Below are positions 28,646-46,753 of a DNA stretch of 64,000 nucleotides, in pieces. The stretch is from a bacterium (GTDB lineage Bacteria; CAYTYR01; UBA6262). Every line of letters begins with the position of its first letter. Position 1 is the stretch's first letter. The notes under the pieces are model-generated. The model was not told the DNA's origin, searched no databases, and was given only the letters and a program-made list of their open reading frames with translations. The stretch is taken from contig JAQTQE010000004.1 of NCBI GenBank assembly GCA_028712365.1, forward strand, positions 13,806 to 77,805, written 5' to 3'. The position numbers and the translations under genes are program-made.

Positions 28646-29389
28646 ATGGATATTAATGTGTATCAAAAACGTTTTTATCGTGACCAGTTCAAAAAGAAAG
28701 AACTGGAATATTTTGAATTGGTGATCAAGGAAAGCGATCTTTTTATCGGTGTAAGTAAAGCCACGGTTGAAATAAGGGAATTAGCCAGGGAGAGATTATT
28801 CCGGTTAAGGCAAGAATTGGAAGACTATATCGCTGAAAATCCAGTATTTGAAATTACCTTTAAACCGATCGAAATAAGAACGGGTGCTCCGGAAGTGGTG
28901 CGGCGAATGGCCCAGGCCGCCCGGCAAGCCGAAGTGGGACCGATGGCCAGTGTTGCCGGATGCCTGGCGGAAATGGTGGGAGAATCGTTGCGCCGGTTAT
29001 CAACTGAAGTGATCATTGAGAATGGGGGAGATCTTTACCTCGCTTCGACCAAACCCAGGATCATCGGTGTATTTGCCGGCGCCTCCAAATTCAGCGGAAG
29101 ATTATCAATGGAGATCACGCCGGAAGAAATGCCGGCAGGTATTTGTACTTCCAGCGGCACTATCGGCCATTCTGTGAGCTTAGGAAAGGCTGATACCTGT
29201 CTGGTCAAAAGCCGGTCCGCGGCCCTGGCCGATGCCTATGCTTCCACTATTGGGAATATGATCAAGGCCAAAGCTGACCTTCCGGCTGCTTTGGAGAGGG
29301 CAAAATCCTTGCCCGGCCTTGAAGGGCTGCTGATCATTATTGAAAATGAAATGGGACTATGGGGTAATATTAAGCTGGTAAGAACCTAA
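28646..29389 (+). CDS. conserved hypothetical protein (possibly UPF0280/ApbE-like fold)
   Basis: 247 aa. GPMASVAG and ENGGDLY segments reminiscent of ApbE/UPF0280. Assignment is tentative. Confidence 0.45.
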   Translation: MDINVYQKRFYRDQFKKKELEYFELVIKESDLFIGVSKATVEIRELARERLFRLRQELEDYIAENPVFEITFKPIEIRTGAPEVVRRMAQAARQAEVGPMASVAGCLAEMVGESLRRLSTEVIIENGGDLYLASTKPRIIGVFAGASKFSGRLSMEITPEEMPAGICTSSGTIGHSVSLGKADTCLVKSRSAALADAYASTIGNMIKAKADLPAALERAKSLPGLEGLLIIIENEMGLWGNIKLVRT

Positions 29390-29408
29390 TAAAAACGAAT
29401 GAAAGGAT

Positions 29409-29486
29409 ACGAATAAAAGCCGAATAGTATTATTAGCCTAATTAGCTATCCTGCCTAGGCAGGCATTCGCGTTATTCGTGAATTTT
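29409..29486 (+). repeat. same repeat family, copy upstream of gmk
   Basis: See 16321-16430. Contains the perfect 14-bp palindrome CCTGCCTAGGCAGG. Confidence 0.65.
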
Positions 29487-30053
29487 ATGAAAAAAGGGAA
29501 ACTCATTGTTTTATCTGGCCCGTCAGGGACCGGTAAAACAACATTATGCCGTGAATTGGTAAAACGTGTTCCTGGCCTGGTATTTTCTATTTCTGCTACT
29601 ACCCGGGATATCAGACCTGGTGAAATAAATGGCCGTGATTACTATTTCCTGGCAGCAGCGGAATTCAAAAAGAAAATAAAAGACCGGGAATTCCTGGAGT
29701 GGGCTAAAGTGTACGATCAGTTCTACGGAACGCTAAAAAAGCCGATCACTGCTAACCTGGCCAAAGGAATAAGCGTCCTGCTGGATATTGATATGCAGGG
29801 CGCATTACAGGTCAAAGCTAAATTCCCCCAGGCGATACTGATATTTATACTGCCGCCCAGCTTGGAAGAATTGCGCCGGCGTTTGATCCAGCGCAAAAGA
29901 GATTCACTGGCCGCCATTGCCAGGCGGATGAAACAAATAGAGGAGGAGATGAAATATATACCGCGCTATGACCAGGTGATCATTAATAAGGACCTGGTGA
30001 AGACAGTTAAATATTTACAGGCCATAGTGAAAAGCCGAATAAATGCCGAATGA
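29487..30053 (+). CDS. gmk: guanylate kinase Gmk
   Basis: P-loop GPSGTGKTT, SATTR and GRDYYF motifs. I moved the start to the ATG at 29487. The track start at 29478 is a GTG. Confidence 0.9.
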   Translation: MKKGKLIVLSGPSGTGKTTLCRELVKRVPGLVFSISATTRDIRPGEINGRDYYFLAAAEFKKKIKDREFLEWAKVYDQFYGTLKKPITANLAKGISVLLDIDMQGALQVKAKFPQAILIFILPPSLEELRRRLIQRKRDSLAAIARRMKQIEEEMKYIPRYDQVIINKDLVKTVKYLQAIVKSRINAE

Positions 30054-30098
30054 AAATCATTCGCTTAATTCGTAATTATAAAAAAGGAGTGTGAAAAC

Positions 30099-30338
30099 GT
30101 GACTGAACAGAAGCATAGCGAAGTTGCAGAACTGACGATGCAGAATGTAGTGGGTAATAAATATAAAGTAGTGTTGGCCTCAGCAGTGGAAGCTAAAAAA
30201 ATGAAAGAACTGGATAAGGATAATAGCGCCAGCCTGGGTAAAATATCCATCGAAGCCATGAATAAAGTATTGATTAAAGCCAACAAGAAAAAAGATAAAG
30301 AAGATGCGGAAGAATTAGCGGAAGAGTTAGAAAAATGA
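30099..30338 (+). CDS. rpoZ: DNA-directed RNA polymerase subunit omega-like (RpoZ)
   Basis: 79 aa. NKYKVVLASAVEAKKM resembles the RpoZ core NRFxLVxxAARRARQ. Lies in the conserved gmk-rpoZ-coaBC order. Confidence 0.6.
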   Translation: MTEQKHSEVAELTMQNVVGNKYKVVLASAVEAKKMKELDKDNSASLGKISIEAMNKVLIKANKKKDKEDAEELAEELEK

Positions 30339-30417
30339 TGTCGATGATAAAGCCCATCACTGGAATCATTGGCAGTTAATCACTGTAATCAGTTCCAAGC
30401 AAAGCGAGGACTAATCT

Positions 30418-31596
30418 ATGCTTAAGGGCAAGGAAATAGTCGTCGGGATCACCGGCGGCATTGCCGCGTATAAAGCTGCTTATATTGTCAGCCGGTTAAA
30501 AAAAGAACAAGCCCGGGTCACTGTCGTTATGACCAAAATGGCCCAGGAGTTTGTCACTCCGCTGACTTTCCAGTCTTTAACTGCCAATCAGGTTATAACT
30601 GAACTGGTCATGACCCCAAAGCAATGGGAGATCGAACATATCGCGCTGGCTAAAAAAGCCGACTTGGTGCTCATAGCTCCGGCCACTGCTAATTTTATTG
30701 ATAAATGCGCCGCTGGTATTGCCGATGATTTCTTGAGCACGTTGGTGTTAGCGACTAAAGCGCCGATCATGATCTGCCCGGCGATGAACAAAAACATGTA
30801 TGAAAACCAGTTGGTACAGGAAAATATCCGGAAACTGGCAAAAAGAAAAATGATCATTATTGATCCGGAGACCGGCCGTTTAGCCTGCGGAGACGAAGGA
30901 GCCGGGCGATTAGCCGGTGAAGAGAAGATCTTAGCCGCTATTCGTTCTATTCTTATTCCTCATGCGGATTTCCAGGATAAAACAGTACTGATCACTGCCG
31001 GACCTACGCAAGAGCCACTGGACGCCATCCGTTTCATTTCCAACCGGTCTAGCGGCAAAATGGGCTATGCCTTGGCCCGTGAAGCCGCTATTCGCGGGGC
31101 TGACGTGATCCTGGTCACCGGGCCGACCAGCCTGATACCTCCCAAAGAAGCTACCGTCATCCATGTCCGGACAGCCTTGGAAATGTATGAAAAGGTATTG
31201 TCCCATTATCCGGCCGCGGATATAGTCATTGCCGCCAGCGCGGTAGGGGATTTCCGGCCGCGTAATTTAGTGCCGGGAAAAATGAAGAAAAAAAGCAGAT
31301 TAAACCTGGCATTGATCGGTAACCCTGATATCCTGCAAGAACTGGGAAAACGTAAGAAGAAACAATTATTGGTCGGATTTGCCGCGGAAAGCAGTCAGCT
31401 CCTGGCTAATGCCAGGAAAAAAATGCGTGCCAAGAACCTGGACTTGATCATTGCCAATAAAATCGAGGATGGTTTCAACAAAGATACTAATAAAGTTCTT
31501 TTACTCTGGGGCCAAAAAGGCCGGAAAGCCCTGCCGGTATTACCGAAAGAAAAAGTAGCAAAAGAAATTCTTGACAAGATAAGAACCTTGTGTTAA
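30418..31596 (+). CDS. coaBC: bifunctional phosphopantothenoylcysteine decarboxylase/phosphopantothenate--cysteine ligase CoaBC
   Basis: 392 aa. N-terminal flavoprotein motif GITGGIAAYKA and a C-terminal CoaB domain. Confidence 0.9.
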   Translation: MLKGKEIVVGITGGIAAYKAAYIVSRLKKEQARVTVVMTKMAQEFVTPLTFQSLTANQVITELVMTPKQWEIEHIALAKKADLVLIAPATANFIDKCAAGIADDFLSTLVLATKAPIMICPAMNKNMYENQLVQENIRKLAKRKMIIIDPETGRLACGDEGAGRLAGEEKILAAIRSILIPHADFQDKTVLITAGPTQEPLDAIRFISNRSSGKMGYALAREAAIRGADVILVTGPTSLIPPKEATVIHVRTALEMYEKVLSHYPAADIVIAASAVGDFRPRNLVPGKMKKKSRLNLALIGNPDILQELGKRKKKQLLVGFAAESSQLLANARKKMRAKNLDLIIANKIEDGFNKDTNKVLLLWGQKGRKALPVLPKEKVAKEILDKIRTLC

Positions 31597-31637
31597 AAAA
31601 AGGAAACACAATTTCTCTTCATCCGGAGAATTAATTA

Positions 31638-33815
31638 ATGAATAAGCTAAAATTTATAATACTTACTCTGGTAACAGCGGTAAGTATTTTATTTTTAGTA
31701 TCCCCGGCAGCCGCCGCCCCGAACGCTCCTACCGGATTTACCGCGGTTAATTTTGGCGGGCCGATCAGGCTGGCTTGGACTGCTAGTACCGGAGGGGTAG
31801 GAACAGTCACCTACACTGTTTACCGCGTTGAAGCCGATTCTACTACCATTCCCACAAATCCTCCTACAGGCGCTGGTACTTACGGCGCCTACGCCCAAAC
31901 CGTTACTTTCGGGATCACCAGTACCAGCTATGTCGATACATCAGTGAGTGACGGTACTACTTATTATTACTTTGTCACTGGAAATGACGGTACCGGGGAA
32001 AGCAGTCCCGCTACTACGGTCAGTTCCGCCACTAGTGATTATCCCGATGCTGATGCTGGCTACTATCTGACTCTTTCCGCGACAGAAACAACGATAGACT
32101 ATGAGACCAGTACCTTAGCCAACCCTTCCACCGGGACAATTATTACCTACAATATTAGTGATACAGACCAGGCTGGACACAGGTTTGTCGCGGCTAAGAT
32201 CAATTATGACATAATAGATAATTTTACCGATACTACCATCTATAAAGAAATTCAGGAAATATCCGGAGGTAGCACCGGCATTAATACCGGCCAGATCACC
32301 TGGGATGGCCGCTGGTTCAACACTACCCAGTATACCAAGCATAATGGCTCTTACACTGTTCAAGTTTGGGCTACTGATTTTGCCGGTACCGATCATCCAA
32401 AAGTGACGCTTACTATTACGGTGCACGCGGTGCATGTTAATGATGTGATCCAAACCTTTACCGATTTCGGTACTACTACTATCGCGCATAGCCTGCCGAT
32501 GCATTTTTCCTACCAATTGACCCAGGATGCCTGGACTACCATCACTATATATAATACGAATGGGACCGTGACCACCTCTGATGATACTCTGGTTAAGCGG
32601 TTTACTTATTCCGCGCCGCGCAATAGTGAAGGGCAGGATCGTAATTTCCGTGAATACCAGACCTGGGATGGTACTGATGAAAACATTAAATTAGTGCCAA
32701 CCGGGATTTATCGGTTCGCTATTGATGCTTATTTTGATCATACCGGCGCTGCCGACCGGGACACTGCTGAGGGCCGGGGCTGGACTTTTGCCCTGGATAA
32801 AAGGATCGTGGATATCACCACCACTGGTATTAGTGCCAGCAATGCGCTGGCCAGCATTAAATATACCTTGAGCGAAACTGCCAATGTCAAGATCAAGATC
32901 TGCAAATCCAGCACGACCTTTTCGACTGATAGTACTACCGGTGAAGCGATTCCCAGCCCAGCGGCCAATTTAGTAAAAACTTTTACCTTTTACCAACAAA
33001 GTTCTGGAGAACAGGAAATTACCTGGGACGGCAATGATGAAGGCGGCGTGGCCATGGGAAAAGGCGTATATTTTGTGGTTATAACTGCTACCGACGCGGA
33101 AGGTAATAGGTTCTTTAATACTTCTGGCACTGATAACCTTTTCCGCACCTCTGTTTCCATTGATAAAACCGCTATCCAGATAGCTACTGATTCTACGGCG
33201 CCGACAGTGTCTTCGGTTACCCCGGCTAATGGCGCCATCCTGACCAGTTCATTCACGGAAGTAAGCGCTGTACTGGCGGATAATACCGGAGGATCTGGCG
33301 TGGACCTGGCCAACTCTACTATCACCATGACTGATCCTGGCGGGAGCATTGTTACCGGCACCCAATCCAATAATGGCAGCGATACCATTACGCTGACCGT
33401 TGCCGCGCAAACCATAAACGGTACTTACACTTTACGGATCACACCCAGGGACTTGGTCGGTAATGTAGCGTCGCAAGCAACCTATACTTTCAGTTTGAAT
33501 ACCAGTGGCGAAGAAGGAGATTTTAAGGAATCTGTGTTCATCTATCCGAATCCTGTTAAAGGAAGAAGTGCCACTTTTGCATATTCCCTGGCTGGCGCGG
33601 CTACCGTGACTATTGATGTGTATACTATATTGGGTGAAAAGATCTGGTCAAAAGTGATTTATGATAACAGCTCAGGTGATAAAAGGGTGAGTTGGAGAAT
33701 CATTAATAACGATGGCGAAGTCCTGGCCGATGACTTATACCTGTATAAGATCACAGCTGAATATTCGAACGGCAATACCAGGACTGCCACCAAGAAACTG
33801 ATAATTTCAAAATAG
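31638..33815 (+). CDS. secreted multi-Ig-like-domain protein with FlgD-Ig-like repeats and a T9SS-type C-terminal sorting domain
   Basis: 725 aa. Signal peptide. At least three WDG(R/T/N)D motifs of FlgD-Ig-like domains. C-terminal about 80 aa begins IYPNPVKG and ends KKLIISK, like Por_Secre_tail. Confidence 0.6.
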   Translation: MNKLKFIILTLVTAVSILFLVSPAAAAPNAPTGFTAVNFGGPIRLAWTASTGGVGTVTYTVYRVEADSTTIPTNPPTGAGTYGAYAQTVTFGITSTSYVDTSVSDGTTYYYFVTGNDGTGESSPATTVSSATSDYPDADAGYYLTLSATETTIDYETSTLANPSTGTIITYNISDTDQAGHRFVAAKINYDIIDNFTDTTIYKEIQEISGGSTGINTGQITWDGRWFNTTQYTKHNGSYTVQVWATDFAGTDHPKVTLTITVHAVHVNDVIQTFTDFGTTTIAHSLPMHFSYQLTQDAWTTITIYNTNGTVTTSDDTLVKRFTYSAPRNSEGQDRNFREYQTWDGTDENIKLVPTGIYRFAIDAYFDHTGAADRDTAEGRGWTFALDKRIVDITTTGISASNALASIKYTLSETANVKIKICKSSTTFSTDSTTGEAIPSPAANLVKTFTFYQQSSGEQEITWDGNDEGGVAMGKGVYFVVITATDAEGNRFFNTSGTDNLFRTSVSIDKTAIQIATDSTAPTVSSVTPANGAILTSSFTEVSAVLADNTGGSGVDLANSTITMTDPGGSIVTGTQSNNGSDTITLTVAAQTINGTYTLRITPRDLVGNVASQATYTFSLNTSGEEGDFKESVFIYPNPVKGRSATFAYSLAGAATVTIDVYTILGEKIWSKVIYDNSSGDKRVSWRIINNDGEVLADDLYLYKITAEYSNGNTRTATKKLIISK

Positions 33816-33819
33816 AGGT

Positions 33820-34767
33820 ATGAATTTGAGCAAGAAAGAAAAATTACTGCTTTTTATACTGCTATCTGCTATCTGCCATCTGCCATCTGTTTTGACAGCT
33901 GCTACCAGCCAGACCGGTACTACTACAGCCTCGTTCCTGAAAATAGAGACTGGGGCCAGGCCGGTGGGCATGGGCGGGGCATACGTCGCGGTTGTTGATG
34001 ATATCAATGCTGTTTATTGGAATCCAGCCGGATTAGTGCAGTTGCAATCCAGGGAATTTAGTTTTATTCATACTGCCTGGCTGGAAAAAATACATCATGA
34101 GACTGTATCCTTTGCGGCACCGGGGAACCAGAGATTCGCTTATGGTTTGAGCGTGGTTTTTTTCGGCACTACGGATATAGACCGGCGCACTGCCGCTGGC
34201 ATAAATGATGGCAAAGCCAAAGTAGCAGATTATTATGAAAGTGTTTCACTGGCCTGGAAACTGATGGATAACACCAGCATCGGCGCGACCCTGAAGAGCA
34301 TCCAGATGACCCTGGACAATGATAAAGGATCAGGCTATGCCCTGGACCTGGGAGCGCTGCAAAAATTACCGTTGAATATGAGTGTGGGCATTATGGTGCA
34401 GAATCTGGGGCCAAAAATGAAAGCAGTGGATACCAGTGAAAAATTGCCCACCAATGTCAAGACCGGATTGGCCTGGAGAGCCTTGGATAATAAACTTGTA
34501 TTAGCCGGGGATATTGACCTGCCCAATGACCGGGAAATGAAATTCCATGCCGGCGCTGAATACCAATTCAACAGGCTATTCGCTTTGCGCGCCGGATATG
34601 AAGATGTAGGTTCTCTGGGCAATTCCAGCGGAATGACTGCCGGTATCAGTATTAATGAAGATATGCTGGATGAGATATTGAACGTAAATATGCAGTTTGA
34701 CTATTCCTGGTTGTATTTTGGTGAACTTGGTTCAACGCATAGGATAGGGATCAGTGTAAAGTTTTAA
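33820..34767 (+). CDS. putative outer-membrane beta-barrel, PorV/FadL-like
   Basis: 315 aa. Signal peptide. N-terminal GARPVGMGGAY...NPAGL motif as in FadL/PorV-family barrels. C-terminal aromatic residue (VKF). Confidence 0.5.
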   Translation: MNLSKKEKLLLFILLSAICHLPSVLTAATSQTGTTTASFLKIETGARPVGMGGAYVAVVDDINAVYWNPAGLVQLQSREFSFIHTAWLEKIHHETVSFAAPGNQRFAYGLSVVFFGTTDIDRRTAAGINDGKAKVADYYESVSLAWKLMDNTSIGATLKSIQMTLDNDKGSGYALDLGALQKLPLNMSVGIMVQNLGPKMKAVDTSEKLPTNVKTGLAWRALDNKLVLAGDIDLPNDREMKFHAGAEYQFNRLFALRAGYEDVGSLGNSSGMTAGISINEDMLDEILNVNMQFDYSWLYFGELGSTHRIGISVKF

Positions 34768-34836
34768 CCGTAAATTTAGCGAAGAAAAGAAGCGAAAAAC
34801 ACAAATAGATAAGAAGGTGAAGATATACGATTACAG

Positions 34837-34866
34837 AAGCAGGGTATTATGACCTGCTTTTTTTTA
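34837..34866 (+). terminator. intrinsic terminator after the PorV-like gene
   Basis: AAGCAGG/CCTGCTT stem followed by T8. Confidence 0.65.
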
Positions 34867-34895
34867 ATATTCGAGAAATTCGCTAAGGACAAACT

Positions 34896-35660
34896 ATGTC
34901 AAACAATGATCTACAGCAGGTGATCAGGGATTTTAAGGCTTATTTGGAACAGGAGCAAAGAAAAGGGTTGAAAGCTGTTCCTAGAACGGTCAACCGGCCT
35001 AAAATAATAGCTAAATTTAAAGCTAAAGCTGCTACCGTTGGTCTTGGCAAAAGCGCGGCTCTTGACCAACTCCATCAGGAATACGCCGGTTGCCAGAATT
35101 GCCCTTTGGGACGGACCAGGAATAAATTTGTCTTTGGCGAGGGCAGTGCAGATGCCCGCTTAATGTTTATTGGCGAAGGACCTGGTTTTGATGAAGACCA
35201 GACTGGCCGGCCTTTTATCGGCAAGGCCGGGCAATTGCTGACTAAGGCGATAGAAACAACAATAGATCTCCAACGGGAAGAGGTCTACATAGGAAATATT
35301 GTAAAATGCCATCCTATGAAAAACCCGGATCAGCCAACGCTGCGCGGCAATGACCGGCCGCCGGCAGCTGAGGAAATGAATGCCTGTTTACCGATAATTA
35401 CCCGGCAAATAGAGATAATTAAACCGGAGATAATTTGTTTATTAGGCCGGACAGCGGCCCAGGCGATTCTCAGGTCAAATGCCGGGATACACGAATTGCG
35501 CGATAAATTCCATATTTTAAACTTTAGCGGGCATGAGGTTAAATGTATTGCCACGGTCCATCCTGCCAGCTGCCTGTATGATCCCGCCAATAAGAAGTAT
35601 GTCTGGGAAGACTTCAAGAAGATCAGAGCTCTCCTGAAAAAGACATCTACACAGATTTAA
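34896..35660 (+). CDS. udg: uracil-DNA glycosylase family 4 (Fe-S cluster UDG) with N-terminal extension
   Basis: Motifs GEGPG, CxxC and GRPFIGKAG of family-4 UDG. About 60 aa of N-terminal extension. Confidence 0.8.
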   Translation: MSNNDLQQVIRDFKAYLEQEQRKGLKAVPRTVNRPKIIAKFKAKAATVGLGKSAALDQLHQEYAGCQNCPLGRTRNKFVFGEGSADARLMFIGEGPGFDEDQTGRPFIGKAGQLLTKAIETTIDLQREEVYIGNIVKCHPMKNPDQPTLRGNDRPPAAEEMNACLPIITRQIEIIKPEIICLLGRTAAQAILRSNAGIHELRDKFHILNFSGHEVKCIATVHPASCLYDPANKKYVWEDFKKIRALLKKTSTQI

Positions 35661-35677
35661 AAAGAGATTTCACAGCT

Positions 35678-37630
35678 ATGAAAGGTACTATGAATAATTT
35701 TGCTAAAGTCATTATCCCCGGAATCGCCCTTGACCGGTTATTTGACTATGCCATTCCCCCGGGATTAAAAGAAGACATCCGGGTCGGACATTTGGTTAAT
35801 GTCAATTTTGGCCACCAGGATATCCAAGCGATAGTGTCTGAACTATTGCCAAAAAGCAAAATCCCCAAAGCCAAGGATATTATCAGTATCGTTTCACCGC
35901 AGCCATTTTTAAGTGAGACTATGCTGGAACTGACTCACTGGATCGCTGATCATTATTTTTGTTCATGGGGCGAGGCGATCGAAGCGTGCTTAATAAAACC
36001 GGTCAAACGACCGGTTAAGGTTGAGAAAATAAAAGAGCAAAAAAATCTCGATTTGCCGGGTTTATTGACGGGTGAACAAAACAGGATACTGGAACAGTTG
36101 AGAACTTTTCAGCAGGATCTAAACAATAAACCGGTCCTGCTCTGGGGCGGGCTGACGAGCGAAAGGATCACTATCTACCTGGAACTGGTAGATCCCTTAA
36201 TTAAAAGCCAGCGCCAGGTCCTGATCATAGTTCCACAGATAGGGATGATAGACCTATTACAGCATCATTTTTCCGCGCGCTATCCCGGGAAAGTAATTTC
36301 TTTGCATAGCGGTCTTTCCACCGGTGAAAAGCACAAGGCCTGGGAAGAAATAAGGACCGGCAAAGTCTCAATAATCCTGGGGACCAGGATGGCGGTATTC
36401 TATAGTTTTCAAAAATTGGGACTCATGATCATGGAGGATGAGCAGGACACAGCCTATAAGTCAGACCAAAAACCAATGTATCATACCCGAGATGTAGTCG
36501 CGAAAAAAGCTGAACTGGAGAGGATTCCCCTGATTTTTGCGACTGCCGCTCCCTCTGCCGAAAGCTATTACAAAGCCATCAAGGATGATTATAAATTACT
36601 AAAATTTGGCAATCTTTTTGACCAGGAAATCGTAAAAATACAGGTACAGGAATTGCCTAAGCGCATCCAAAAAGACACGCTGGTTTATTTCAGCCAATCC
36701 TTTATTCAGGCAATTGAATCGCGGCTGCAAAAGCAGGAGCGTGCCGCTTTTTTTGTCAATATGCGCGGCTATTCCACGTATGTCTATTGCCGGATGTGCA
36801 AGTTTGTAATGAAATGTCCTGATTGTGATGTGGCTTTAACCGTGAGTGCCGAGAAGAATACACTGTATTGCCGTTATTGCCAATATACCCAGAAACAGAC
36901 CACTGAATGCCCATCCTGCCATACTCAGCACTTGAGACCGATAGGGATCGGCATGGAGACAGTGACCGCTGCGCTGCAGGATATTTTCCCGCAGGCCAAG
37001 ATCAAGCGCATTGACGCGCAAACCTATGAACAAAGCAATAATCTAAGAGATATTGATATCATCATAGGAACACAAGTCTTAAATAAATATGATTATTTAC
37101 CTAATACGACTTTATTAGGAGTATTGTTAATAGACCTTTTATTGAACCTGCCGGATTTCCGGGCTGCTGAACATACTTTCCAAACCTTGATCGGATTGAT
37201 CCAGCGTTTGGATACTGCCAAAGGAAATACAGAAGTGATCATCCAGGCTGAGAATGTGGATCATTATTTGCTGGCATCAATAAAGAACCAGGATTGGGCT
37301 AGTTTTTACCGCCTGGAGCTGGAATTCCGTAAACAGTTGAAATATCCGCCGTTCGGGAGCCTGGCGCAAGTAGAGGTCCGGGGAGCGGATAAGGATAAAG
37401 TAGAAAAAGCGGCGCTGGCTCTGGCCGGGGAATTCAAGAAATCAACGATAAAAGTGTATGGCCCGGCGCCGTCATTCAGGGCTAAATTGCGGGGGCAGTA
37501 CCGACAGCATATTATGCTGAAATCGTCCAGCCATAACGCCTTGATCAAAGTGCTGCAGAAAGTGAAGCCAAACAAGCGCACCACTGCTATCACCATTAGC
37601 ACTGACGTCGATCCAGTTGAAGTGCTTTAA
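35678..37630 (+). CDS. priA: primosomal protein N' (PriA) homolog with degenerate helicase motifs I/II
   Basis: 650 aa. N-terminal 3' DNA-binding region (RLFDYAIP). Zn-binding CxxC-CxxC block. Walker A reads GGLTSERI and the DEEH box reads EDEQ. Confidence 0.8.
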   Translation: MKGTMNNFAKVIIPGIALDRLFDYAIPPGLKEDIRVGHLVNVNFGHQDIQAIVSELLPKSKIPKAKDIISIVSPQPFLSETMLELTHWIADHYFCSWGEAIEACLIKPVKRPVKVEKIKEQKNLDLPGLLTGEQNRILEQLRTFQQDLNNKPVLLWGGLTSERITIYLELVDPLIKSQRQVLIIVPQIGMIDLLQHHFSARYPGKVISLHSGLSTGEKHKAWEEIRTGKVSIILGTRMAVFYSFQKLGLMIMEDEQDTAYKSDQKPMYHTRDVVAKKAELERIPLIFATAAPSAESYYKAIKDDYKLLKFGNLFDQEIVKIQVQELPKRIQKDTLVYFSQSFIQAIESRLQKQERAAFFVNMRGYSTYVYCRMCKFVMKCPDCDVALTVSAEKNTLYCRYCQYTQKQTTECPSCHTQHLRPIGIGMETVTAALQDIFPQAKIKRIDAQTYEQSNNLRDIDIIIGTQVLNKYDYLPNTTLLGVLLIDLLLNLPDFRAAEHTFQTLIGLIQRLDTAKGNTEVIIQAENVDHYLLASIKNQDWASFYRLELEFRKQLKYPPFGSLAQVEVRGADKDKVEKAALALAGEFKKSTIKVYGPAPSFRAKLRGQYRQHIMLKSSSHNALIKVLQKVKPNKRTTAITISTDVDPVEVL

Positions 37631-37645
37631 GAGCAGTAGAAGTAA

Positions 37646-37748
37646 GGTGAAGGTTGTAGAAGTAGGTATGGAAGTAGGGCTAAAGTTTGTGGTTTAAGCC
37701 TAACACCCATTGACTTCAGACCAAACTTACTTCCAAAACTTACACCTA
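37646..37748 (+). repeat. about 100-bp intergenic repeat element, copy B
   Basis: See copy A. Lies between priA and a small ORF. Confidence 0.7.
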
Positions 37749-37792
37749 TTAACTGTTCCTCGTATTGACTGTACTTAAAAAAGGGAGCGGGT

Positions 37793-38080
37793 ATGAACAA
37801 ATATCTTACTGTATTAAAAGTGGCGGCGCGGACATTTTTAATTATCTTCCTGCTAAGCTGTATCGGCCAGCTTATGGTCGACCGTACTTACGGGAAGGGG
37901 GCTCCGGTAGAATATGCCAATAAGTTCTATTTCTTTAACCGGGCTAAGTCATTAATGCCCATTTCGCCGGATCTATACGCCAAAGCTAAAATTATTGAGG
38001 AATTATTCTCATTTTCACTGCTCTTGGCTCTTATCCTGAATGTGCTATATCAATACGAAAAAAGGAAATTACGGTTATAA
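37793..38080 (+). CDS. small hypothetical membrane protein
   Basis: 95 aa. Two hydrophobic segments. No homolog I can recognise. Confidence 0.35.
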   Translation: MNKYLTVLKVAARTFLIIFLLSCIGQLMVDRTYGKGAPVEYANKFYFFNRAKSLMPISPDLYAKAKIIEELFSFSLLLALILNVLYQYEKRKLRL

Positions 38081-38102
38081 ACGGTTAAGCCGCAGGAAGG
38101 CC

Positions 38103-38137
38103 TTGACAAAAACAGGATTTTCTGCTAATTATATATT
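38103..38137 (+). promoter_or_regulatory. sigma70-like promoter (TTGACA-17-TAATTA)
   Basis: Consensus -35 TTGACA at 38103-38108 with an AT-rich -10 region. Confidence 0.45.
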
Positions 38138-38243
38138 AGTCATATGAAAGACGTACAGTCACGGAGAATGCCACGGCGTCAAAGATATGACTAAACTTGG
38201 GATGGAAACAAAGTGATTTTCTCAGGTTTTTTAGCCAGGGAAC

Positions 38244-38270
38244 CGGGTCTACTTTAACTAAGTAGACCCG
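38244..38270 (+). terminator. perfect 11-bp hairpin (possible end of a short transcript from the 38103 promoter)
   Basis: CGGGTCTACTT-taact-AAGTAGACCCG. The downstream T-tract is weak. Confidence 0.35.
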
Positions 38271-38355
38271 ATTCATTTATAAAGGCCGAATTACGCGAAC
38301 AAAAGCAGCGAATAAGGGCCAAATTAAATTATTAGCAACATTAGCTATTTTATCG

Positions 38356-38384
38356 TTGACATTAGCGCCAAAATAGTATATATT
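38356..38384 (+). promoter_or_regulatory. near-consensus sigma70 promoter TTGACA-17-TATATT upstream of def
   Basis: -35 at 38356-38361, 17-nt spacer, -10 at 38379-38384. Confidence 0.55.
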
Positions 38385-38388
38385 TAAC

Positions 38389-38435
38389 AAGGCAATCTTC
38401 TATGACAATAGAGGATTGCCTTAAATTATTATTTT
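38389..38435 (+). promoter_or_regulatory. leader hairpin plus U-tract (attenuator/terminator-like) between promoter and def start
   Basis: AAGGCAATCTTCT / AGAGGATTGCCTT 13-bp stem with one mismatch, followed by aaattattatttt. Confidence 0.5.
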
Positions 38436-38458
38436 AAGGATTTAGTCTAAGGTGTTTT

Positions 38459-38956
38459 ATGAGTATAATGGACATAAAAACCTACGGGGATCCATGTCTT
38501 CGTAAGAAAAATGAAGATATCAAGGAAGTCACACCGGAAGTACTTAAACTGGTGAATGATATGCTGGAAACCATGTATGCCAATAAAGGGGTTGGTTTGG
38601 CCGCGCCCCAGGTAGGCATAAATAAAAACCTATTGGTGGTTGATGTCGGGGATGTGTCAGGCAAGCATGAATTGGTCGTGCTGATCAATCCTGAGATCCT
38701 TTCTAAGGAAGGATCAGATGTAATGGAAGAGGCCTGCTTATCCTGTCCCAGGGCTAGCGTAAAGATAACACGGGCAAATAAAACTGTAGTTCAGGCTATC
38801 AACCAAAAGGGTGAAAAGGTCATCCGTGAAGATAGCGGTTTTTTATCCCGGGCGATACAGCATGAAATGGATCATCTAAAGGGTAAATTGATCATTGATT
38901 TTGCTGGTTTCTTCGAAAAGATAAAACTTAAAGGCAAGATGAAGAAGCGGAGCTAA
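38459..38956 (+). CDS. def: peptide deformylase Def
   Basis: 165 aa. Motifs GVGLAAPQ, EACLS and QHEMDHL. Confidence 0.92.
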   Translation: MSIMDIKTYGDPCLRKKNEDIKEVTPEVLKLVNDMLETMYANKGVGLAAPQVGINKNLLVVDVGDVSGKHELVVLINPEILSKEGSDVMEEACLSCPRASVKITRANKTVVQAINQKGEKVIREDSGFLSRAIQHEMDHLKGKLIIDFAGFFEKIKLKGKMKKRS

Positions 38957-38957
38957 A

Positions 38958-39914
38958 ATGCGTGTTATTTTCATGGGCACACCCGAATACGCGGTGCCTT
39001 TCCTGCAATCGCTCATAGGTCTGGGAGAAGAAGTAGTCGGCGTGGTAACTATGCCGGATAAGCCGGTAGGCAGGAAGCAGGAAATACAAGAACCGCCGGT
39101 AAAAGTATTAGCTAAAAAAAAGAATATCCCGGTATTCCAACCGGCAAAGATAAATGAAACCAGCTCTTTGGAAGCATTGAAAAATCTAGATCCTGACCTG
39201 GCAATAGTAGTTGGTTTTGGGCAGATACTGAGCCAAAAACTACTGGACTTGCCTAAATTAGGAACGATCAATGTGCATTTTTCATTATTGCCTAAATACC
39301 GGGGAGCCAGTCCGATCCAGGCCGCGATCATCAATGGCGAAGAAAAGACCGGCATTTCCACCATGTTCCTGGTTAAAAAACTGGACAGTGGCCCGGTGCT
39401 TTTGCAACAAGAGATCCCTATCGATAAAAAGGATACGGCTGTCACCCTGACTGCAAAACTGACCAAAGTTGGCGTGGAAGTATTAAAAGAAACCGTCTTA
39501 CTGATCAGAGAGGGTAAAGTCGCAGCAAAACCTCAGGATGAAGCGCTTTCTTCTTATGCTCCCCTGTTAGTTAAGGAAAGCGGCTTAATAGACTGGAAAA
39601 AGAGTTCAAAAGAATTATATGATTTTATCCGCGGGATGTATCCCTGGCCTGGCGCATTCACGTTTTATGAACACGGCGGCAGGAAACATATGCTGAAGAT
39701 CTGGGAAGCGGAGGAAATACCCAGGATAGAATTGGATCACAAAGCCGCGGCTAACGGAACGATCCTGGATGTGCTGAAAAATCATGGTTTTGCGGTAAAG
39801 TGCGGACAAGGTGGATTGCTTTTGACCAGGGTGCAATCTGAAGGCGGGAAAGTAATGCCAGCTTATAACTTTGTCATTGGTCATCATCTCAAGAAGGGTG
39901 ACAGGTTAGGATGA
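38958..39914 (+). CDS. fmt: methionyl-tRNA formyltransferase Fmt
   Basis: 318 aa. Formyltransferase N-domain (HFSLLPKYRGASPIQ). Confidence 0.92.
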   Translation: MRVIFMGTPEYAVPFLQSLIGLGEEVVGVVTMPDKPVGRKQEIQEPPVKVLAKKKNIPVFQPAKINETSSLEALKNLDPDLAIVVGFGQILSQKLLDLPKLGTINVHFSLLPKYRGASPIQAAIINGEEKTGISTMFLVKKLDSGPVLLQQEIPIDKKDTAVTLTAKLTKVGVEVLKETVLLIREGKVAAKPQDEALSSYAPLLVKESGLIDWKKSSKELYDFIRGMYPWPGAFTFYEHGGRKHMLKIWEAEEIPRIELDHKAAANGTILDVLKNHGFAVKCGQGGLLLTRVQSEGGKVMPAYNFVIGHHLKKGDRLG

Positions 39915-40420
39915 TAATGTGGCTTGTCTATAATATTTATTTTCCCTTAGTCCTGTTTACGGGGAAAATATTACGGCTCGCGCCTGATGAGACAGAACTT
40001 CACCTGGTTAAACTGAATAATCACTTGCGCGGTCAGGGAAAAGGAAAAGCAGAAAAGATTCTGATCCTGACTCCCAGTTGCCTGCAAAATAAAGACTGTA
40101 AGAATAATATAGTTGAGGATGCTAAAAACTGCCTGAAATGCGGTAAATGCAAAGTCAAAGATCTTTTAGCTCTAAGTGAAAAATACAAGATCAAACTGGT
40201 AGTAGCTACCGGAGGAAGATTAGCCCGGCAAGTTCTGTCCGAGACCAAGGCGGATACAGTGATCGCGGTGGCTTGTGAAAAGGAACTGGCCAGCGGTATT
40301 ATCGATACGTATCCGGTAGTAGTGCACGCAGTGGTCAATCAAAGACCTTTTGGCCCGTGCGTAAATACGGATGTGAACATACAAGAAGTTGAAAATATCA
40401 TTCAACGTATTTTAAAGTAA
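39911..40420 (+). CDS. Cys-rich hypothetical protein, DUF116-like
   Basis: 169 aa. N-terminal hydrophobic segment. CxxCxxC cluster (CLKCGKC). Family assignment is tentative. Confidence 0.45.
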   Translation: MIMWLVYNIYFPLVLFTGKILRLAPDETELHLVKLNNHLRGQGKGKAEKILILTPSCLQNKDCKNNIVEDAKNCLKCGKCKVKDLLALSEKYKIKLVVATGGRLARQVLSETKADTVIAVACEKELASGIIDTYPVVVHAVVNQRPFGPCVNTDVNIQEVENIIQRILK

Positions 40421-40450
40421 GAGGCAGGTCCAACGGTTAAAGGATGAACT

Positions 40451-40550
40451 CCGTTAGACCTCTAAAATAGGACAGCGGACCAAGTTAATCAGCCTATCTA
40501 TATTGCAATAGTTAATTATAATTTATTAATGATCCCAGGAGGTCTAACGG
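40451..40550 (+). promoter_or_regulatory. htpX 5' leader with 12-nt perfect anti-SD/SD long-range pairing (candidate RNA thermometer)
   Basis: CCGTTAGACCTC at 40451-40462 is the exact reverse complement of GAGGTCTAACGG at 40539-40550, which covers the GGAGG SD 2 nt before the ATG. A competing GGTCCAACGG lies at 40427-40436. Confidence 0.5.
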
Positions 40551-40551
40551 G

Positions 40552-41433
40552 ATGAATTCAATTAAAACTTTTGGTTTGATGTTTATATTAATTTTGCTAT
40601 TTACCTGGGCTGGCCGGGCGATCGGCGGCCAGCAAGGCATGGTGATGGCTTTTATCTTCGCTGTAGCGACAAATTTTTTCATGTACTGGTTCAGTGATTC
40701 CATAGTCCTGATGATGTACAAAGCTAAAATGGTCAAAGAAGAGGATGAAGCAGATCTTTATAAAGTGATCAGGAACCTAACGCTGAAAGCGAATCTGCCG
40801 ATGCCCAAAGTGTATATCATTGAAAATCCGACACCTAATGCTTTTGCCACTGGCCGGGATCCGCAACACGCGGCGGTGGCTGTCACCAGGGGTATCTTGG
40901 ATGTTTTAAACCAATCAGAACTGGAAGGCGTTATTGCCCATGAGCTGAGCCACGTGAAGCACCGGGACATTCTGGTGGCCACTATTGCCGCGACTTTTGC
41001 CGGGGCTATCACGATGCTGGCTAGGCTAGGACAGTTTGCCATGATGTTCGGCGGTATGGGCCGGGACAGGGATAATGATAGCGGCGGGGGATTGGGAGCG
41101 TTACTCATGATCATACTGGCTCCCCTGGCGGCGATCTTGATCCAGATGTCCATCTCCCGTTCGCGGGAATACCTGGCTGATGAAGGCGGAGCCAGGATTA
41201 CCGGACATCCTTTAGCCCTGGCCAATGCTTTAAAGAAACTGGCTGCTGCCGGCAAGCAGATTCCTATGGCGGCTAATCCCAGCACCGCGCATATGTTTAT
41301 CGTGAATCCTTTAAATGGTGAAGGCTTAGTCGGTCTCTTCAGTACGCATCCGCCGATGGCCAAACGCATCGAATTGCTGGAAAAAATGGAACAAGATCTG
41401 AAGATGTCAGGAATGCCGAAAATAATCACATGA
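40552..41433 (+). CDS. htpX: zinc metalloprotease HtpX (M48 family)
   Basis: 293 aa. [10 protein letters not shown] zinc motif. Transmembrane segments. Confidence 0.9.
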
Positions 41434-42374
41434 AAAAAATTACCCGCGTCAGCATATTCATAATTATTATCCTGGCCGCGTTATATTTCCTGGTTAATCT
41501 GGTAATGCTGCTTTTGATCAGGAACGACGCAGACCTGGAAGTGCCGGACCTGACTGGTATTACCGTATCTGAAGGATACGATAAATTGACCGCTCTCCAT
41601 TTGTTCCTGGTAAAGGATGGCGAACAATATAATGCCAGTATCCCAACCGGGGCGATAGTATCCCAAGTGCCATTGCCTGGCAGTAAAGTAAAAGCCGGCC
41701 GGAAAATAAAAGTCATCATCAGCCGTGGCTCGGAAAAGGTCAATACTCCGAATGTGACTGGCAAATTATGGAGAGACGCGGAGATAGTCTTGCGCCAGGC
41801 TGGTTTGATCATAGGGGAAACATTACGCGTTTACTCTAGCCAGGACCAGGATACAGTAGTGATTCAGGACCCGGTGGTGGGGACTTCCGTAGAAAAAGGC
41901 AGCAGCATTGGTCTTATTGTCAGTGCCGGGCCGATCGGGGAAGGGGCAGTAATGCCTAACCTGTTAAGCCGTCCTTATGAGCAAGTAGACCGCATCATTA
42001 AGATCATGGGCCTAAAAGTAGAGAAAGTAATGACAGAGGTCAATGATAATATTAATTCCGGCACAGTGGTTAACCAGTTGCCTGAAGCTAATTTACCATT
42101 GACTAAAGACACTGTAGTCTCACTGGTGATCAGCGTGAAATCAGGAGAAGAACTGGCCTCACCGTCCGTGAAAATAATCCATTATGAAGTCGCGCAGGGA
42201 TTATTGGAAAAAAGGGTGCGCATTACCGTCATTGATGAGCAGGGCGAAAGAGAAGTTTTTAATAAAGCGCAGGCTCCGGGCACAAAGCTGAATGTAGCGG
42301 CCAGCGTTAAAGGCAAGGCCAAAGCAAAAATATATGTCAATGAAGTTTTAGCCGAAGAAAGGCAGCTGCAATGA
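41430..42374 (+). CDS. membrane-anchored PASTA-repeat protein (no kinase or PBP domain)
   Basis: 314 aa. One N-terminal transmembrane segment followed by about four PASTA-like repeats. Located immediately upstream of rpe, as PrkC is in Firmicutes. Confidence 0.6.
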
Positions 42375-43039
42375 TCAGGATCGCGCCATCGGTTTTAAAT
42401 TGTGATCTTAGCTGCCTGGCCGCGGAAGTGAAGCTGCTGGAAGACGGTGGCGCGGATTGGTTGCATTTGGATGTGATGGATGGCGTATTCGTTCCTAATT
42501 TGACTTTTGGTCCGCCGGTGATCAAATCACTGCGTCAGAAAACGAAATTGCCTTTTGACGCGCACTTAATGATAGCTGACCCGGAACGGTATATCCAGGA
42601 CTATGTTGCCGCCGGTTGTGATATGATCACGGTCCATGCAGAAGCAGTGAAGAATATGGGCCGGACTATTGAGAAAATAAAAAAAGCGGGTTTAAAAGCC
42701 GGCATTTCCATAAAACCAAAGACCGCGCCGGAAGTGATCGGGCCTTGGTTGAAAAAGATTGACCTGGTGCTGGTGATGACGGTGGAACCTGGATTTGGCG
42801 GACAGGAATTCATGGCAGCCATGTTGCCAAAGATCAAGACCTTACGGCAGATGATCGGACAACAAAAGAGAAAAATTGAATTAGCTGTGGATGGCGGTAT
42901 CAGCGATAAAAATATAGCCCAGGTAGTTTCTGCCGGAGCTGATTTTGTCGTGGCTGGTAGTTTTGTGTTTAAAAGCCATAATGTAAAGAAAGCGATCCAG
43001 GTATTGAGAAGTAAGGCAGAAATAGGAATGGAAACATAA
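42371..43039 (+). CDS. rpe: ribulose-phosphate 3-epimerase Rpe
   Basis: 222 aa. [12 protein letters not shown]...HLDVMDG TIM-barrel motifs. Confidence 0.9.
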   Translation: MIRIAPSVLNCDLSCLAAEVKLLEDGGADWLHLDVMDGVFVPNLTFGPPVIKSLRQKTKLPFDAHLMIADPERYIQDYVAAGCDMITVHAEAVKNMGRTIEKIKKAGLKAGISIKPKTAPEVIGPWLKKIDLVLVMTVEPGFGGQEFMAAMLPKIKTLRQMIGQQKRKIELAVDGGISDKNIAQVVSAGADFVVAGSFVFKSHNVKKAIQVLRSKAEIGMET

Positions 43040-43066
43040 AATCAAATAGAAAACGAGGTGTTGACA

Positions 43067-43312
43067 GTGGCATTGAAACTGAAATTGCAGCGCAAAGGAG
43101 CTCCACACAGAGCTTTCTACAGATTGGTAGCTCAGGATGAATCAAGGGCCAGCAGCGGCAAGGTAGTGGCAATATTGGGACAGTATAGCCAATTTACCAA
43201 ACCCCAATTGACTGGATTGAAACAAGAAGAGATCATGTCGTGGTATAAAAAAGGGGCAAAACCAACTAATACCGTAAAGAAAATATTGCTCCAGGCAGGC
43301 ATTAAACTATAA
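43067..43312 (+). CDS. rpsP: 30S ribosomal protein S16
   Basis: KLKLQRKGAPHRAFYRLVA matches bS16. A GTG at 43067 with GAGG RBS is preferred over the GTG at 43058. Confidence 0.85.
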   Translation: MALKLKLQRKGAPHRAFYRLVAQDESRASSGKVVAILGQYSQFTKPQLTGLKQEEIMSWYKKGAKPTNTVKKILLQAGIKL

Positions 43313-43410
43313 AGCGCATATAGCTTATAGCTAATGGCTTATGGCTTTTTGCTATAGGTCATCTGCTATCTGCGCTCTTGCCTTTAGCGTACTATCTTGA
43401 GGGGGTTTTG

Positions 43411-43653
43411 ATGCTGAGCAACTTAAAAGATCTGGTAGAATATATTGTTAAAGCCTTAGTGGATGAACCTGATAAGGTGAGTGTTAACGAAGTATTAGGA
43501 GAGCAAGCCGTAGTATTGGAATTGCGGGTATCCCAGCCGGATATCGGTAAAGTGATCGGTAAACAAGGCCGGATAGTGAAAGCCATCCGGTTATTATTGG
43601 GAGCCGCGGGATCAAAAGCTAAGAAACGTATTGTCTTGGAGATCATTGAGTGA
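43411..43653 (+). CDS. KH-domain RNA-binding protein (YlqC/UPF0109 family)
   Basis: KH motif [13 protein letters not shown]. Conserved rpsP-KH-trmD order. I moved the start to the ATG at 43411. Confidence 0.75.
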
Positions 43654-44414
43654 AGATTGATGTGATCACTCTTTTCCCGGGTATCTTTAATGGATTCCTG
43701 GAAGAGTCGATAATCAAAAAAGCGCAAAAAAGGAAAGTGGTCGGCATCAGCTTGGTAGATTTGCGCCAGTTCGGAGAAGGTCGGCACTTGACCTGCGATG
43801 ATTCTCCTTACGGCGGCGGTGCCGGTATGGTTATGAAATGCGCGCCGCTGTTTAAGGCGGTCCAGGAAGTATCCCGGAAAAACAGTCATGTAATACTGAT
43901 GTCTCCTCAGGGTAAGATCCTTAACCAGGCCATGGCCAACAAGCTGGCGAAAAAGAAACAACTGACTATAATTTGCGGCCGGTATGAAGGCATTGATGAA
44001 CGAGTCCGGGCCAGGCTGGTTGATGAAGAGATATCCATCGGTGATTTTGTAGTCAGCGGCGGCGAGATACCGGCCATGGTTTTAGTAGAAGCGGTCGTAA
44101 GATTATTACCGGGCGCTATCAGCAAACAAGAATCTTATGAAAAAGATTCTTTTTATAATGGATTACTGGATTGGCCTCATTATACCCGGCCAGCTATTTA
44201 TAATAAAATGAAGGTCCCGGCTGTGCTGTTGAGCGGTAACCATATGGCTATCGAGAAGTGGCGGCGGGAACAAGCGGAAAAAGCAACTAAAATAAACAGG
44301 CCTGAGCTATGGGCCAGTTATTTGCGATCAACAAAGGCAATAAGAACGAGGAACAGTAAGAGAGAAATACATTTGCCAGTAAGAGCGAGGAGCAGTAAGA
44401 GCGAGAAGCAGTAA
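43650..44414 (+). CDS. trmD: tRNA (guanine37-N1)-methyltransferase TrmD
   Basis: 254 aa. SPOUT fold, N-terminal [10 protein letters not shown]. The C-terminal 25 aa are encoded by short tandem DNA repeats. Confidence 0.9.
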
Positions 44415-44477
44415 GAACTGTTTCTCGTATTGACCGGCAACTCGAGCGCTGGCGCACTTAAAAAAAGGAGTAGAACA

Positions 44478-44852
44478 ATGGATTTGATGAAAGTAGTACA
44501 TGACAAGCAGTTGAAGAAGGACATACCTTCCTTTAAACCGGGAGACCTGGTCCGGGTACATACGAAAGTAGTCGAAGGTGATAATGAACGGGTACAGGTG
44601 TTTGAAGGTACCGTCATTGCCCGTAAAAGCGGTGGATTGAACGAAAGCCTGACCGTCAGGAAAATATCATTTGGCGTAGGAGTAGAACGGACATTTCCTA
44701 TTAATTCGCCGCGGATCATCAAATTGGAGCGGATCAAAGAAGGCAGAGTCCGCCGGGCAAAATTGTACTATATCAGGGATAAAGAGGGTAAGGAAGCTAA
44801 AATTAAGGAAAAAATAAGCAACCAGGTCATTCCTACCGATGCCAAAGGATGA
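44478..44852 (+). CDS. rplS: 50S ribosomal protein L19
   Basis: [18 protein letters not shown]...FEGTVIARK matches bL19. Start is the ATG at 44478, after an AGGAG RBS. Confidence 0.9.
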
Positions 44853-45847: not shown

Positions 45848-45853
45848 GAGCAG

Positions 45854-46741: not shown

Positions 46742-46753
46742 AGGGACACCTTA

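Follow-up and report, generated by a model that had tools for sequence, protein, structure and literature searches.

PriA restarts DNA replication at broken forks. A PriA without a working motor has been described from Deinococcus radiodurans, where the lysine of GKT is replaced by arginine and ATPase and helicase activities are absent; the protein still binds ssDNA, forks and DnaB (Lopper, Boone & Morrow 2015, PMC4504706) and is presumed to act as an ATP-independent helicase loader. [quoted passage not shown] A second nucleotide site, weaker and unmapped, has been suggested for E. coli PriA (PMC5778457). Here we describe a PriA encoded in a 64-kb stretch of DNA, called the window at its full length, which was originally predicted to resemble a motif-less Deinococcus protein, a precedent that is real (PMC4504706). 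Window PriA has degenerate Walker A and Walker B motifs in common with the Deinococcus-Thermus proteins, including Lys-to-Arg in GKT (R163 in 12/12 members of its clade), and with priA300 it shares the arginine at the Walker A lysine position. DNA binding is kept in D. radiodurans PriA and is predicted for the window protein, which comes from a different lineage, a clade of MAGs deposited mostly as Elusimicrobia. It scores far higher on the PRK05580/TIGR00595 than on the PRK14873 models. Moreover, its decay extends to motifs Ia, III, V and VI, whereas for Deinococcus-Thermus only motifs I and II have been described (PMC4504706), a comparison made by description. The E. coli mutant differs in that it carries a single engineered change in a canonical motor and works via PriB and DnaT; window PriA is natural and multiply degenerate.

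The open reading frame, whose bounds in the ORF list are exactly those of Table 1, is a full-length PriA ortholog in the ancestral priA slot. Profile, structure and alignment matches all bear out the original view of a genuine PriA whose Walker A and Walker B motifs are degenerate. The protein reaches 412.4 bits on TIGR00595 (cutoff 230.35), and HMMER matches it to the solved structure of K. pneumoniae PriA, 4nl4 (E 5.7e-74). The PRK05580 equivalog models, all of which are narrower, score below their cutoffs (e.g., 516 vs. 813), and window PriA therefore falls outside every curated subfamily. Translation may start at 35690, since the orthologous proteins begin at M5 (MNNFAKV); AAAGG stands before this second ATG. 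The gene lies in the order coaBC-udg-priA-def-fmt, which is present in six related genomes, and canonical relatives have udg-priA-fmt or coaBC-priA-def-fmt. PriA evolves faster than its neighbours, with identities of 77–79% vs. 82–91% for coaBC, def, fmt and others. Scans of the 64-kb window for Rfam families and tRNAs returned no matches.

Table 1 Position, strand and supporting evidence of the features of window priA (coordinates count from the first letter of the window)
Feature	Position	Strand	Evidence or remark
priA ORF	35678..37630	+	650 aa; likely true start 35690 (M5)
3' DNA-binding domain (3'BD; residues 11-105)	35708..35992	+	PF17764 E 2.1e-22; conserved
Short linker (residues 106-131) replacing winged-helix domain	35993..36070	+	pLDDT 58-72
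RecA-like lobe 1 (residues 132-300)	36071..36577	+	Fold retained in model, catalytic motifs gone; AF2 pLDDT >90; dN/dS 0.10-0.24
Motif I / Walker A GGLTSERI (canonical GxTxSGKT)	36146..36169	+	Degenerate; alignments, translation
Motif Ia IVPQIGMIDL (canonical LVPEISLTPQ)	36227..36256	+	Degenerate; conservation columns, translation
Motif II / Walker B EDEQ (canonical DEEH)	36434..36445	+	Degenerate; alignments, translation
Aromatic-rich loop region YKSDQKPMYHTRD	36455..36493	+	K261, P266, Y268 conserved
Motif III ATAA (canonical GSAT)	36539..36550	+	Degenerate; alignment, translation
Cys-rich region (CRR), two zinc sites	36788..36919	+	PF18319 27 bits vs. cutoff 26
Motif V GTQVLNKYDYLP (canonical GTQMIAKGLDFP)	37067..37102	+	Altered; alignment, translation
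Motif VI GLIQRLDT (canonical QVAGRAGR)	37193..37216	+	Degenerate; alignments, translation
PriA C-terminal domain (CTD; residues 558-646)	37349..37615	+	PF18074 E 5.2e-18

Placement of GGLTSERI at Walker A and EDEQ at Walker B, which the original prediction had made by hand, is upheld by two independent alignments, HMMER against 4nl4 and MAFFT with 22, 100 and 266 PriAs. Both set G157 to I164 against G-x-T-x-S-G-K-T, with Gly replaced by Glu, Lys by Arg and Thr by Ile, and both set E253 to Q256 against D-E-E-H. A mis-positioned canonical motif, the outcome named in advance as refuting, is excluded: regular expressions for GxxxxGK[ST], DExH and GRxGR/GRAGR run over the whole protein found none of them, which rules out hidden motifs and hand-alignment error alike. 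The Walker A Gly, Lys and Thr are each 100% conserved in 202 canonical PriAs, whereas the clade has R163 in 12/12 members, I, V or L at 164 in 12/12 and E162 in nine of twelve. At Walker B, D253 has become Glu in all twelve, E254 has become Asp, Asn or Gln in 10/12 and H256 has become Gln in 10/12. The losses go beyond what had been predicted, as the decay also reaches motifs Ia, III, V and VI. Motif Ia carries E187 to Gln, L190 to Met and T191 to Ile, with P192 and Q193 also altered, and motif VI carries Q506 to Gly, G509 to Gln, G512 to Asp and R513 to Thr or Ser, with R510 kept. Window PriA thus combines the replaced Walker lysine with loss of Gly and Thr from the P-loop and of Asp from Walker B, and neither motif III nor the second arginine of motif VI survives.

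The 202 canonical PriAs define 151 columns with conservation of 85% or more; the clade keeps 86 of these and differs at 65. The altered columns are concentrated in motifs I, Ia, II, III, V and VI; those kept include D23, K261, Y268, all eight zinc-site Cys and positions in the CTD. Generic helicase Pfam models likewise fall below their cutoffs in window PriA, in contrast to 51–68 bits in a canonical control, and the DEAD model gives 21.8 bits (cutoff 26) vs. 68 bits in the control P0015. Remnants of the nucleotide site persist as the positive charge of R163, E255, the first motif VI arginine R510 and, upstream, the LTxEQ glutamine Q134, so that the protein may still bind a nucleotide without hydrolysing it.

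Outside the motor, the architecture of canonical PriA (E. coli and K. pneumoniae; 4nl4, 6dgd, 8fak) is retained in the 3'BD, two RecA-like lobes, two-zinc CRR and CTD, as is the gene neighbourhood, and the claim that the 3' DNA-binding N-terminus and zinc ribbon are intact holds. Within the 3'BD, D23 is the equivalent of E. coli D17, whose role has been described (PMC5175346), and F22-D23-Y24 is invariant across the clade. The aromatic-rich loop contains K-x-DQKPMY, invariant within the clade, in which, on alignment to K. pneumoniae PriA, K261 matches E. coli K328 and Y268 matches E. coli Y335 (PMC5175346). All eight zinc Cys (C371, 374, 380, 383, 398, 401, 411 and 414) of the CRR, which is inserted in lobe 2, are invariant in 100 PriAs; the other CRR positions G375, H390 and H399, conserved in canonical PriAs, are changed in the clade. 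The CTD is the most constrained region of the protein (dN/dS 0.04–0.10). An AF2 model (pLDDT 91.7, pTM 0.92) predicts that both RecA-like lobes keep the PriA fold, and its best Foldseek match is E. coli PriA 8fak_H (E 1.5e-54, TM 0.87). The second match is 6dcr, an E. coli PriA with the winged-helix domain deleted, which the model resembles. In contrast to canonical PriA, window PriA lacks functional motifs I, II, III and VI and also the winged-helix domain, which E. coli-type PriAs carry between 3'BD and lobe 1 but which is not universal; Firmicute PriAs have an insertion of at least 100 aa where it has a 26-residue linker. Absence of this domain is not diagnostic, as related canonical short PriAs (~665 aa) also do without it.

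The original prediction proposed looking for the substitutions in sister genomes, and there they recur. The motif decay is common to ~13 orthologs (P0001-P0013), the window protein itself and others at 39–84% identity to it, and the GTDB loci L001-L006 carry the same decay. Predicted motor loss is thus old and shared by this clade of ~13 sequenced orthologs. The clade priA, including its degenerate lobes, is under purifying selection, with dN/dS of about 0.06–0.17 overall and 0.05–0.24 in the RecA-like lobes. Because the decay is clade-wide and dN/dS is low, the gene appears to be a pseudohelicase under selection, neither a pseudogene nor a product of misalignment. The clade is thereby confirmed at the sequence level as a new natural example of a putatively motor-less PriA, previously reported only from Deinococcus-Thermus in the literature that we found.

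These observations suggest, with good likelihood, that this is the organism's own priA ortholog (primosomal protein N'), an SF2 motor turned pseudohelicase that would have kept its role in fork recognition. ATP hydrolysis and DNA unwinding have most likely both been lost, because the phosphate-binding loop is destroyed, together with the Mg2+-binding and catalytic acidic motif, motif III and the arginine finger of motif VI. The original prediction had left open an ATPase-dead or a mechanistically divergent factor; the former is much better supported by the sequences, since K230R alone abolishes the ATPase of E. coli PriA (PMC5778457) and further losses are added here. As the aromatic-rich loop, the two-zinc CRR and the CTD are strongly selected, the retained function is most likely to recognise stalled forks independently of ATP and to recruit the replicative helicase. 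Window PriA would bind the fork in a structure-specific manner without ATP and then recruit DnaB, directly or via SSB or a loader, in the manner of D. radiodurans PriA and the E. coli K230R protein. Any duplex remodelling that is required would fall to another helicase.

A very unlikely alternative is that window PriA is a working or nucleotide-gated motor with a non-canonical active site, in which Arg163 stands in for the Walker lysine or a second nucleotide site is used. The site remnants listed above are compatible with it, as are the purifying selection on the lobes, their high-confidence model and the second site proposed for E. coli PriA. However, it is the very Lys-to-Arg change that suffices to abolish ATPase activity in E. 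coli PriA and that is found in the inactive D. radiodurans PriA. Here it is joined by replacement of the P-loop Gly by Glu, of the Mg-ligand Thr by Ile and of the Walker B Asp by Glu, and both motif III and the second arginine of motif VI are gone. The substituting residues also drift within the clade (E/Q/T/I at 162 and D/N/E/Q at 254), which would not be expected of a new catalytic site. At the other extreme, the loss of catalytic motifs and somewhat faster evolution than in neighbouring genes could be read as a non-functional priA on its way to being lost. This is extremely improbable, and the selection data in effect refute it: every relative, across at least 13 lineages down to 39% identity, has an intact, full-length ORF, dN/dS is low, residues of the 3'BD, CTD and zinc sites are invariant, and the clade has new invariant motifs of its own such as K-x-DQKPMY. 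A pseudogene is ruled out on the same grounds.

It also appears quite improbable that window PriA is a specialised paralog, an accessory fork-binding factor, with the helicase-dependent work left to a canonical PriA at another locus of the genome. The sequence at hand is a 64-kb window of the genome, and the lower identity of PriA relative to its neighbours would fit such a paralog, but the gene lies in the ancestral slot beside def and fmt, as in canonical relatives, and priA is normally single-copy. Weakly in the same direction, the six clade assemblies contributed no PriA locus besides L001-L006 among the best 80 of 573 GTDB matches. Changes at CRR positions G375, H390 and H399, near-universal in canonical PriAs, could instead point to neofunctionalisation as a dead scaffold for fork protection or other DNA-structure binding; this too seems very unlikely, given that all fork-recognition determinants are kept, no domain has been gained, and Deinococcus PriA and priA300 have both been interpreted as retaining a restart or loading role.

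The nearest relatives of window PriA are canonical short PriAs labelled Omnitrophota, and P0014, a possible sister sequence, still has Lys163 and His256, which favours an origin independent of Deinococcus-Thermus. In neighbour-joining (NJ) bootstraps the focal clade is recovered at 98–100%, and P0014 as its sister at 80% on all columns vs. 8% on non-helicase columns. A second set of degenerate PriAs was found in Aerophobetes (GTDB loci L011-L013, L015, L017, L018, L024, L025, L031, L044, L048 and L066; 100% NJ bootstrap). Like window PriA, these proteins are ~630–700 aa long with intact 3'BD, CRR and CTD; they have no GK[ST], often with Arg at the Lys position, carry EEEEN for DEEHE and lack GRAGR. 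They differ in having only 30–33% identity to window PriA and another gene context, and on the non-helicase domains they stand apart from the focal clade (0/100 bootstraps for a grouping). The apparent motor loss in Aerophobetes was probably independent of that in the focal clade. A loose grouping of all degenerate PriAs on the full NJ alignment is unsupported and disappears with the non-helicase domains, and looks like long-branch or convergent-decay attraction.

Further degenerate PriAs of metagenomic origin (P0130, P0150, P0157, P0191, P0206, P0222, P0254 and P0255) have, like those of Aerophobetes and the focal clade, an intact 3'BD/CRR/CTD scaffold and apparently dead lobes. Literature searches on PriA with Aerophobetes and on its helicase motifs across other phyla turned up no precedent apart from Deinococcus. 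Whether loss of the PriA motor is a recurrent outcome, seen in at least two further deep lineages (the Elusimicrobia-labelled clade and Aerophobetes), or a Deinococcus-Thermus oddity is about evenly balanced on present sequences. If it is recurrent, the universally selected function of PriA would be ATP-independent fork recognition and helicase recruitment, and its helicase activity a discardable accessory. A second lineage, and probably a third, has long kept a PriA under purifying selection with all ATPase motifs destroyed. Such proteins are evidence from nature that the core function of PriA is to recognise forks and to recruit the helicase; they bear on whether its motor is needed at abandoned forks and raise the question of which other helicase, if any, compensates for the lost motor. 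The TIGR00595 name, "replication restart helicase PriA", would overstate the activity of the degenerate members. Graded natural variants are available for biochemistry. Partial states also occur: P0027 and P0121 keep GSGKT and have lost motif VI, and P0014 keeps both the Walker lysine and the motif II histidine. These partial states may record the order of decay.

In the PriA of the window, the protein that restarts broken replication forks, the helicase motifs fell at the same positions in a HMMER alignment to 4nl4 and in MAFFT alignments of 22, 100 and 266 PriAs. G157-GLTSERI-164 lies opposite GxTxSGKT of Walker A (Gly to Glu, Lys to Arg, Thr to Ile) and E253-DEQ-256 opposite DEEH of Walker B, the placement given in the original prediction. 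Mis-positioned canonical motifs are excluded, because the whole protein contains neither a canonical Walker A nor DExH nor GRAGR. Decay of the motor is wider than had been listed, as motifs Ia (IVPQIGMIDL), III (ATAA), V (GTQVLNKYDYLP) and VI (GLIQRLDT) are also off consensus in the alignment.

The protein is recognizable as PriA by three PriA-specific Pfam domains, including the 3' DNA-binding domain (3'BD) and zinc ribbon earlier described as intact, with generic DEAD and Helicase_C models below their cutoffs. Among NCBIfam models, TIGR00595 ('replication restart helicase PriA') scored 412 bits (cutoff 230); all narrower PRK05580 equivalog models remained under their cutoffs and PRK14873 models scored much lower. 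A phmmer search of PDB sequences matched K. pneumoniae and E. coli PriA (E ~1e-73). Orthologs begin at the fifth codon of the ORF (MNNFAKV) and AAAGG lies shortly before its ATG, so the true start is probably 35690. The AF2 model, built from an alignment of 100 sequences, is confident (pLDDT 91.7, pTM 0.92) also around the dead motifs, and weaker only at linker 106-131 and a few loops. Its best Foldseek matches were fork-bound E. coli PriA 8fak (top; E 1.5e-54, TM 0.87) and WH-deleted E. coli PriA 6dcr, with Mfd and RecQ far behind; the winged-helix domain is absent, as it is from related canonical short PriAs (~665 aa).

Features of the priA gene and its surroundings (nucleotide positions in the window; domains in residues of PriA)
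Feature	Position	Strand	Evidence or content
T9SS-type cargo protein (FlgD-Ig, Por_Secre_tail) and PorV/FadL-like outer-membrane protein	31638..34767	+	between coaBC and udg
priA ORF, 650 aa	35678..37630	+	ORF listing
3'BD	residues 11-105	+	Pfam E 2e-22
CRR (Cys-rich two-zinc region) zinc ribbon	residues 380-406	+	Pfam match
CTD (C-terminal domain)	residues 558-646	+	Pfam E 5e-18
Hydrophobic ORF, 95 aa	37793..38080	+	between priA and def; no Pfam match
Candidate small RNA gene	38101..38278	+	between priA and def
HEAT-repeat protein	45854..46741		adjoins WD40 protein gene
Bacterial WD40 beta-propeller protein	46754..47734	+	six repeats, PF00400 E 4e-85
Multidomain protein, 1627 aa	57173..62056		low-GC region; Zn-phospholipase C, fn3, CARDB, PKD, BNR matches

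The substitutions are common to orthologs in sister genomes. In a search of 5.8 billion proteins, the top 13 matches (39-100% identity) all had degenerate motifs and lacked precomputed DEAD, Helicase_C or ResIII matches, save one isolated match each in P0003, P0010 and P0013. The next homologue, P0014 (37% identity), has an intermediate state: Lys163 and His256 are kept, the P-loop Gly is Ala, the Thr is Ile, DEEH is EDEH, and motif VI is lost. From P0015 onward (<=35% identity, often with an Omnitrophota label) sequences have canonical motifs. When 1.84 billion cluster representatives were scanned exhaustively with HMMER, only four fell in the focal group, beyond which scores fall sharply from 819 to 630 bits; the clade is therefore narrow. 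Six GTDB species representatives carry the gene at 55-79% identity with identical motif decay (6/6): the MAGs Elusimicrobia bacterium UBA6262, NC_groundwater_1672 and fen_1175, 'bacterium STB_115' and two Clostridia-labelled bins. Their conserved order, coaBC-(optional cargo and PorV-like pair)-udg-priA-def-fmt-DUF116-M48-PASTA-rpe, matches that of canonical relatives (udg-priA-fmt or coaBC-priA-def-fmt), which identifies the ancestral priA locus and argues against a stray paralog. Pairwise Nei-Gojobori dN/dS values, approximate as dS is partly saturated, were 0.06-0.17 for the whole gene, and 0.05-0.24 for the RecA-like helicase lobes versus 0.04-0.10 for the CTD. PriA identity is 77-79%, compared with 82-91% for most flanking housekeeping genes, and this faster divergence is in keeping with partly relaxed selection rather than a lost function.

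Conservation across 202 canonical PriAs reaches 85% or more in 151 columns, of which the focal clade keeps 86 and has changed 65, the majority of the changes within or adjoining helicase motifs; three further changes lie in the CRR (G375, H390, H399). Among the kept positions are the eight zinc cysteines, the core of the 3'BD, the CTD, the NLPDFR-E segment and, in the aromatic-rich loop, K261, P266 and Y268, of which K261 and Y268 align with E. coli K328 and Y335 (PMC5175346). [quoted passage not shown] The window thus encodes a PriA fold with conserved fork-recognition elements and destroyed ATPase motifs, maintained by selection.

Overall, these data support the original interpretation and, of its two alternatives, an ATPase-dead or a mechanistically divergent restart factor, favour the first. 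By analogy with two published cases, it would neither hydrolyse ATP nor unwind DNA, and would serve in ATP-independent fork recognition and helicase recruitment. E. coli PriA K230R (priA300), which has none of the ATPase, helicase and translocase activities, is still active in restart assays and leaves cells much like wild type (PMC5778457). For D. radiodurans PriA, the precedent originally invoked, ATPase activity was not measurable and unwinding was negligible, yet affinity for ssDNA and forks was close to normal and DnaB was bound (PMC4504706). Both share the Lys-to-Arg change of the window PriA, and in the window PriA several further catalytic residues are missing. Since these residues are gone and their replacements drift within the focal clade, a re-invented active site is argued against; some residual nucleotide binding is nevertheless conceivable, because R163, E255, R510 and Q134 persist.

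Motor-less PriAs with intact 3'BD, CRR and CTD were also found at 12 GTDB loci outside the focal clade, many labelled Aerophobetes and others from related MAGs (L011, L012, L013, L015, L017, L018, L024, L025, L031, L044, L048, L066). They lack GK[ST] and GRAGR and have EEEEN for DEEHE; examples are FKTEDNEKRKSLYL (Walker A), IEEEEN (DExH) and LLTKIKRLM (motif VI). Neighbour-joining bootstraps supported the focal (98-100%) and Aerophobetes (100%) clades. On non-helicase domains only, the two grouped in 0/100 bootstraps, and the focal clade was as near Omnitrophota-labelled canonical PriAs as any other group, which favours, without proving, independent losses. Partial or complete decay also occurs in metagenomic representatives P0027, P0121, P0126, P0130, P0134, P0139, P0141, P0150, P0157, P0186, P0191, P0206, P0222, P0254 and P0255, with P0027 and P0121 keeping GSGKT and losing motif VI. 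The literature searched contained no report of PriA motif loss outside Deinococcus. Judged by its sequence, the window PriA is a further lineage of the known 'PriA pseudohelicase' type, and together with the Aerophobetes case it indicates that motor loss is not unique to Deinococcus-Thermus.

Downstream of priA, the 95-aa ORF probably encodes a genuine small membrane protein, because it is conserved (64-78% amino acid identity) in four focal-clade loci (L001, L002, L003, L005). The candidate small RNA has a TTGACA box, 17 nt and TATATT, followed by ~136 nt that hardly vary among six genomes; over 183 nt it is 81% identical to L006, where flanking proteins share only 55-75%. The region folds into three hairpins, the last of which resembles a terminator, with a GGGTCTACT/AGTAGACCC stem and then TTCATTT. 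The region has no Rfam family, tRNA or ORF >46 aa, and the sequences are too alike to show covariation. L004-L006 have the cargo and PorV-like pair, and L001-L003 lack it between coaBC and udg; it is therefore an insertion/deletion polymorphism within the clade. GC content falls from ~0.45 to 0.36-0.39 at ~50000..52000 and ~54000..64000, a region that encodes HEAT-repeat proteins and may be horizontally acquired. Every long plausible gene in 1..64000 is encoded by the + strand, with positive GC skew along the whole length, as would fit a region of one replichore with strong leading-strand bias.
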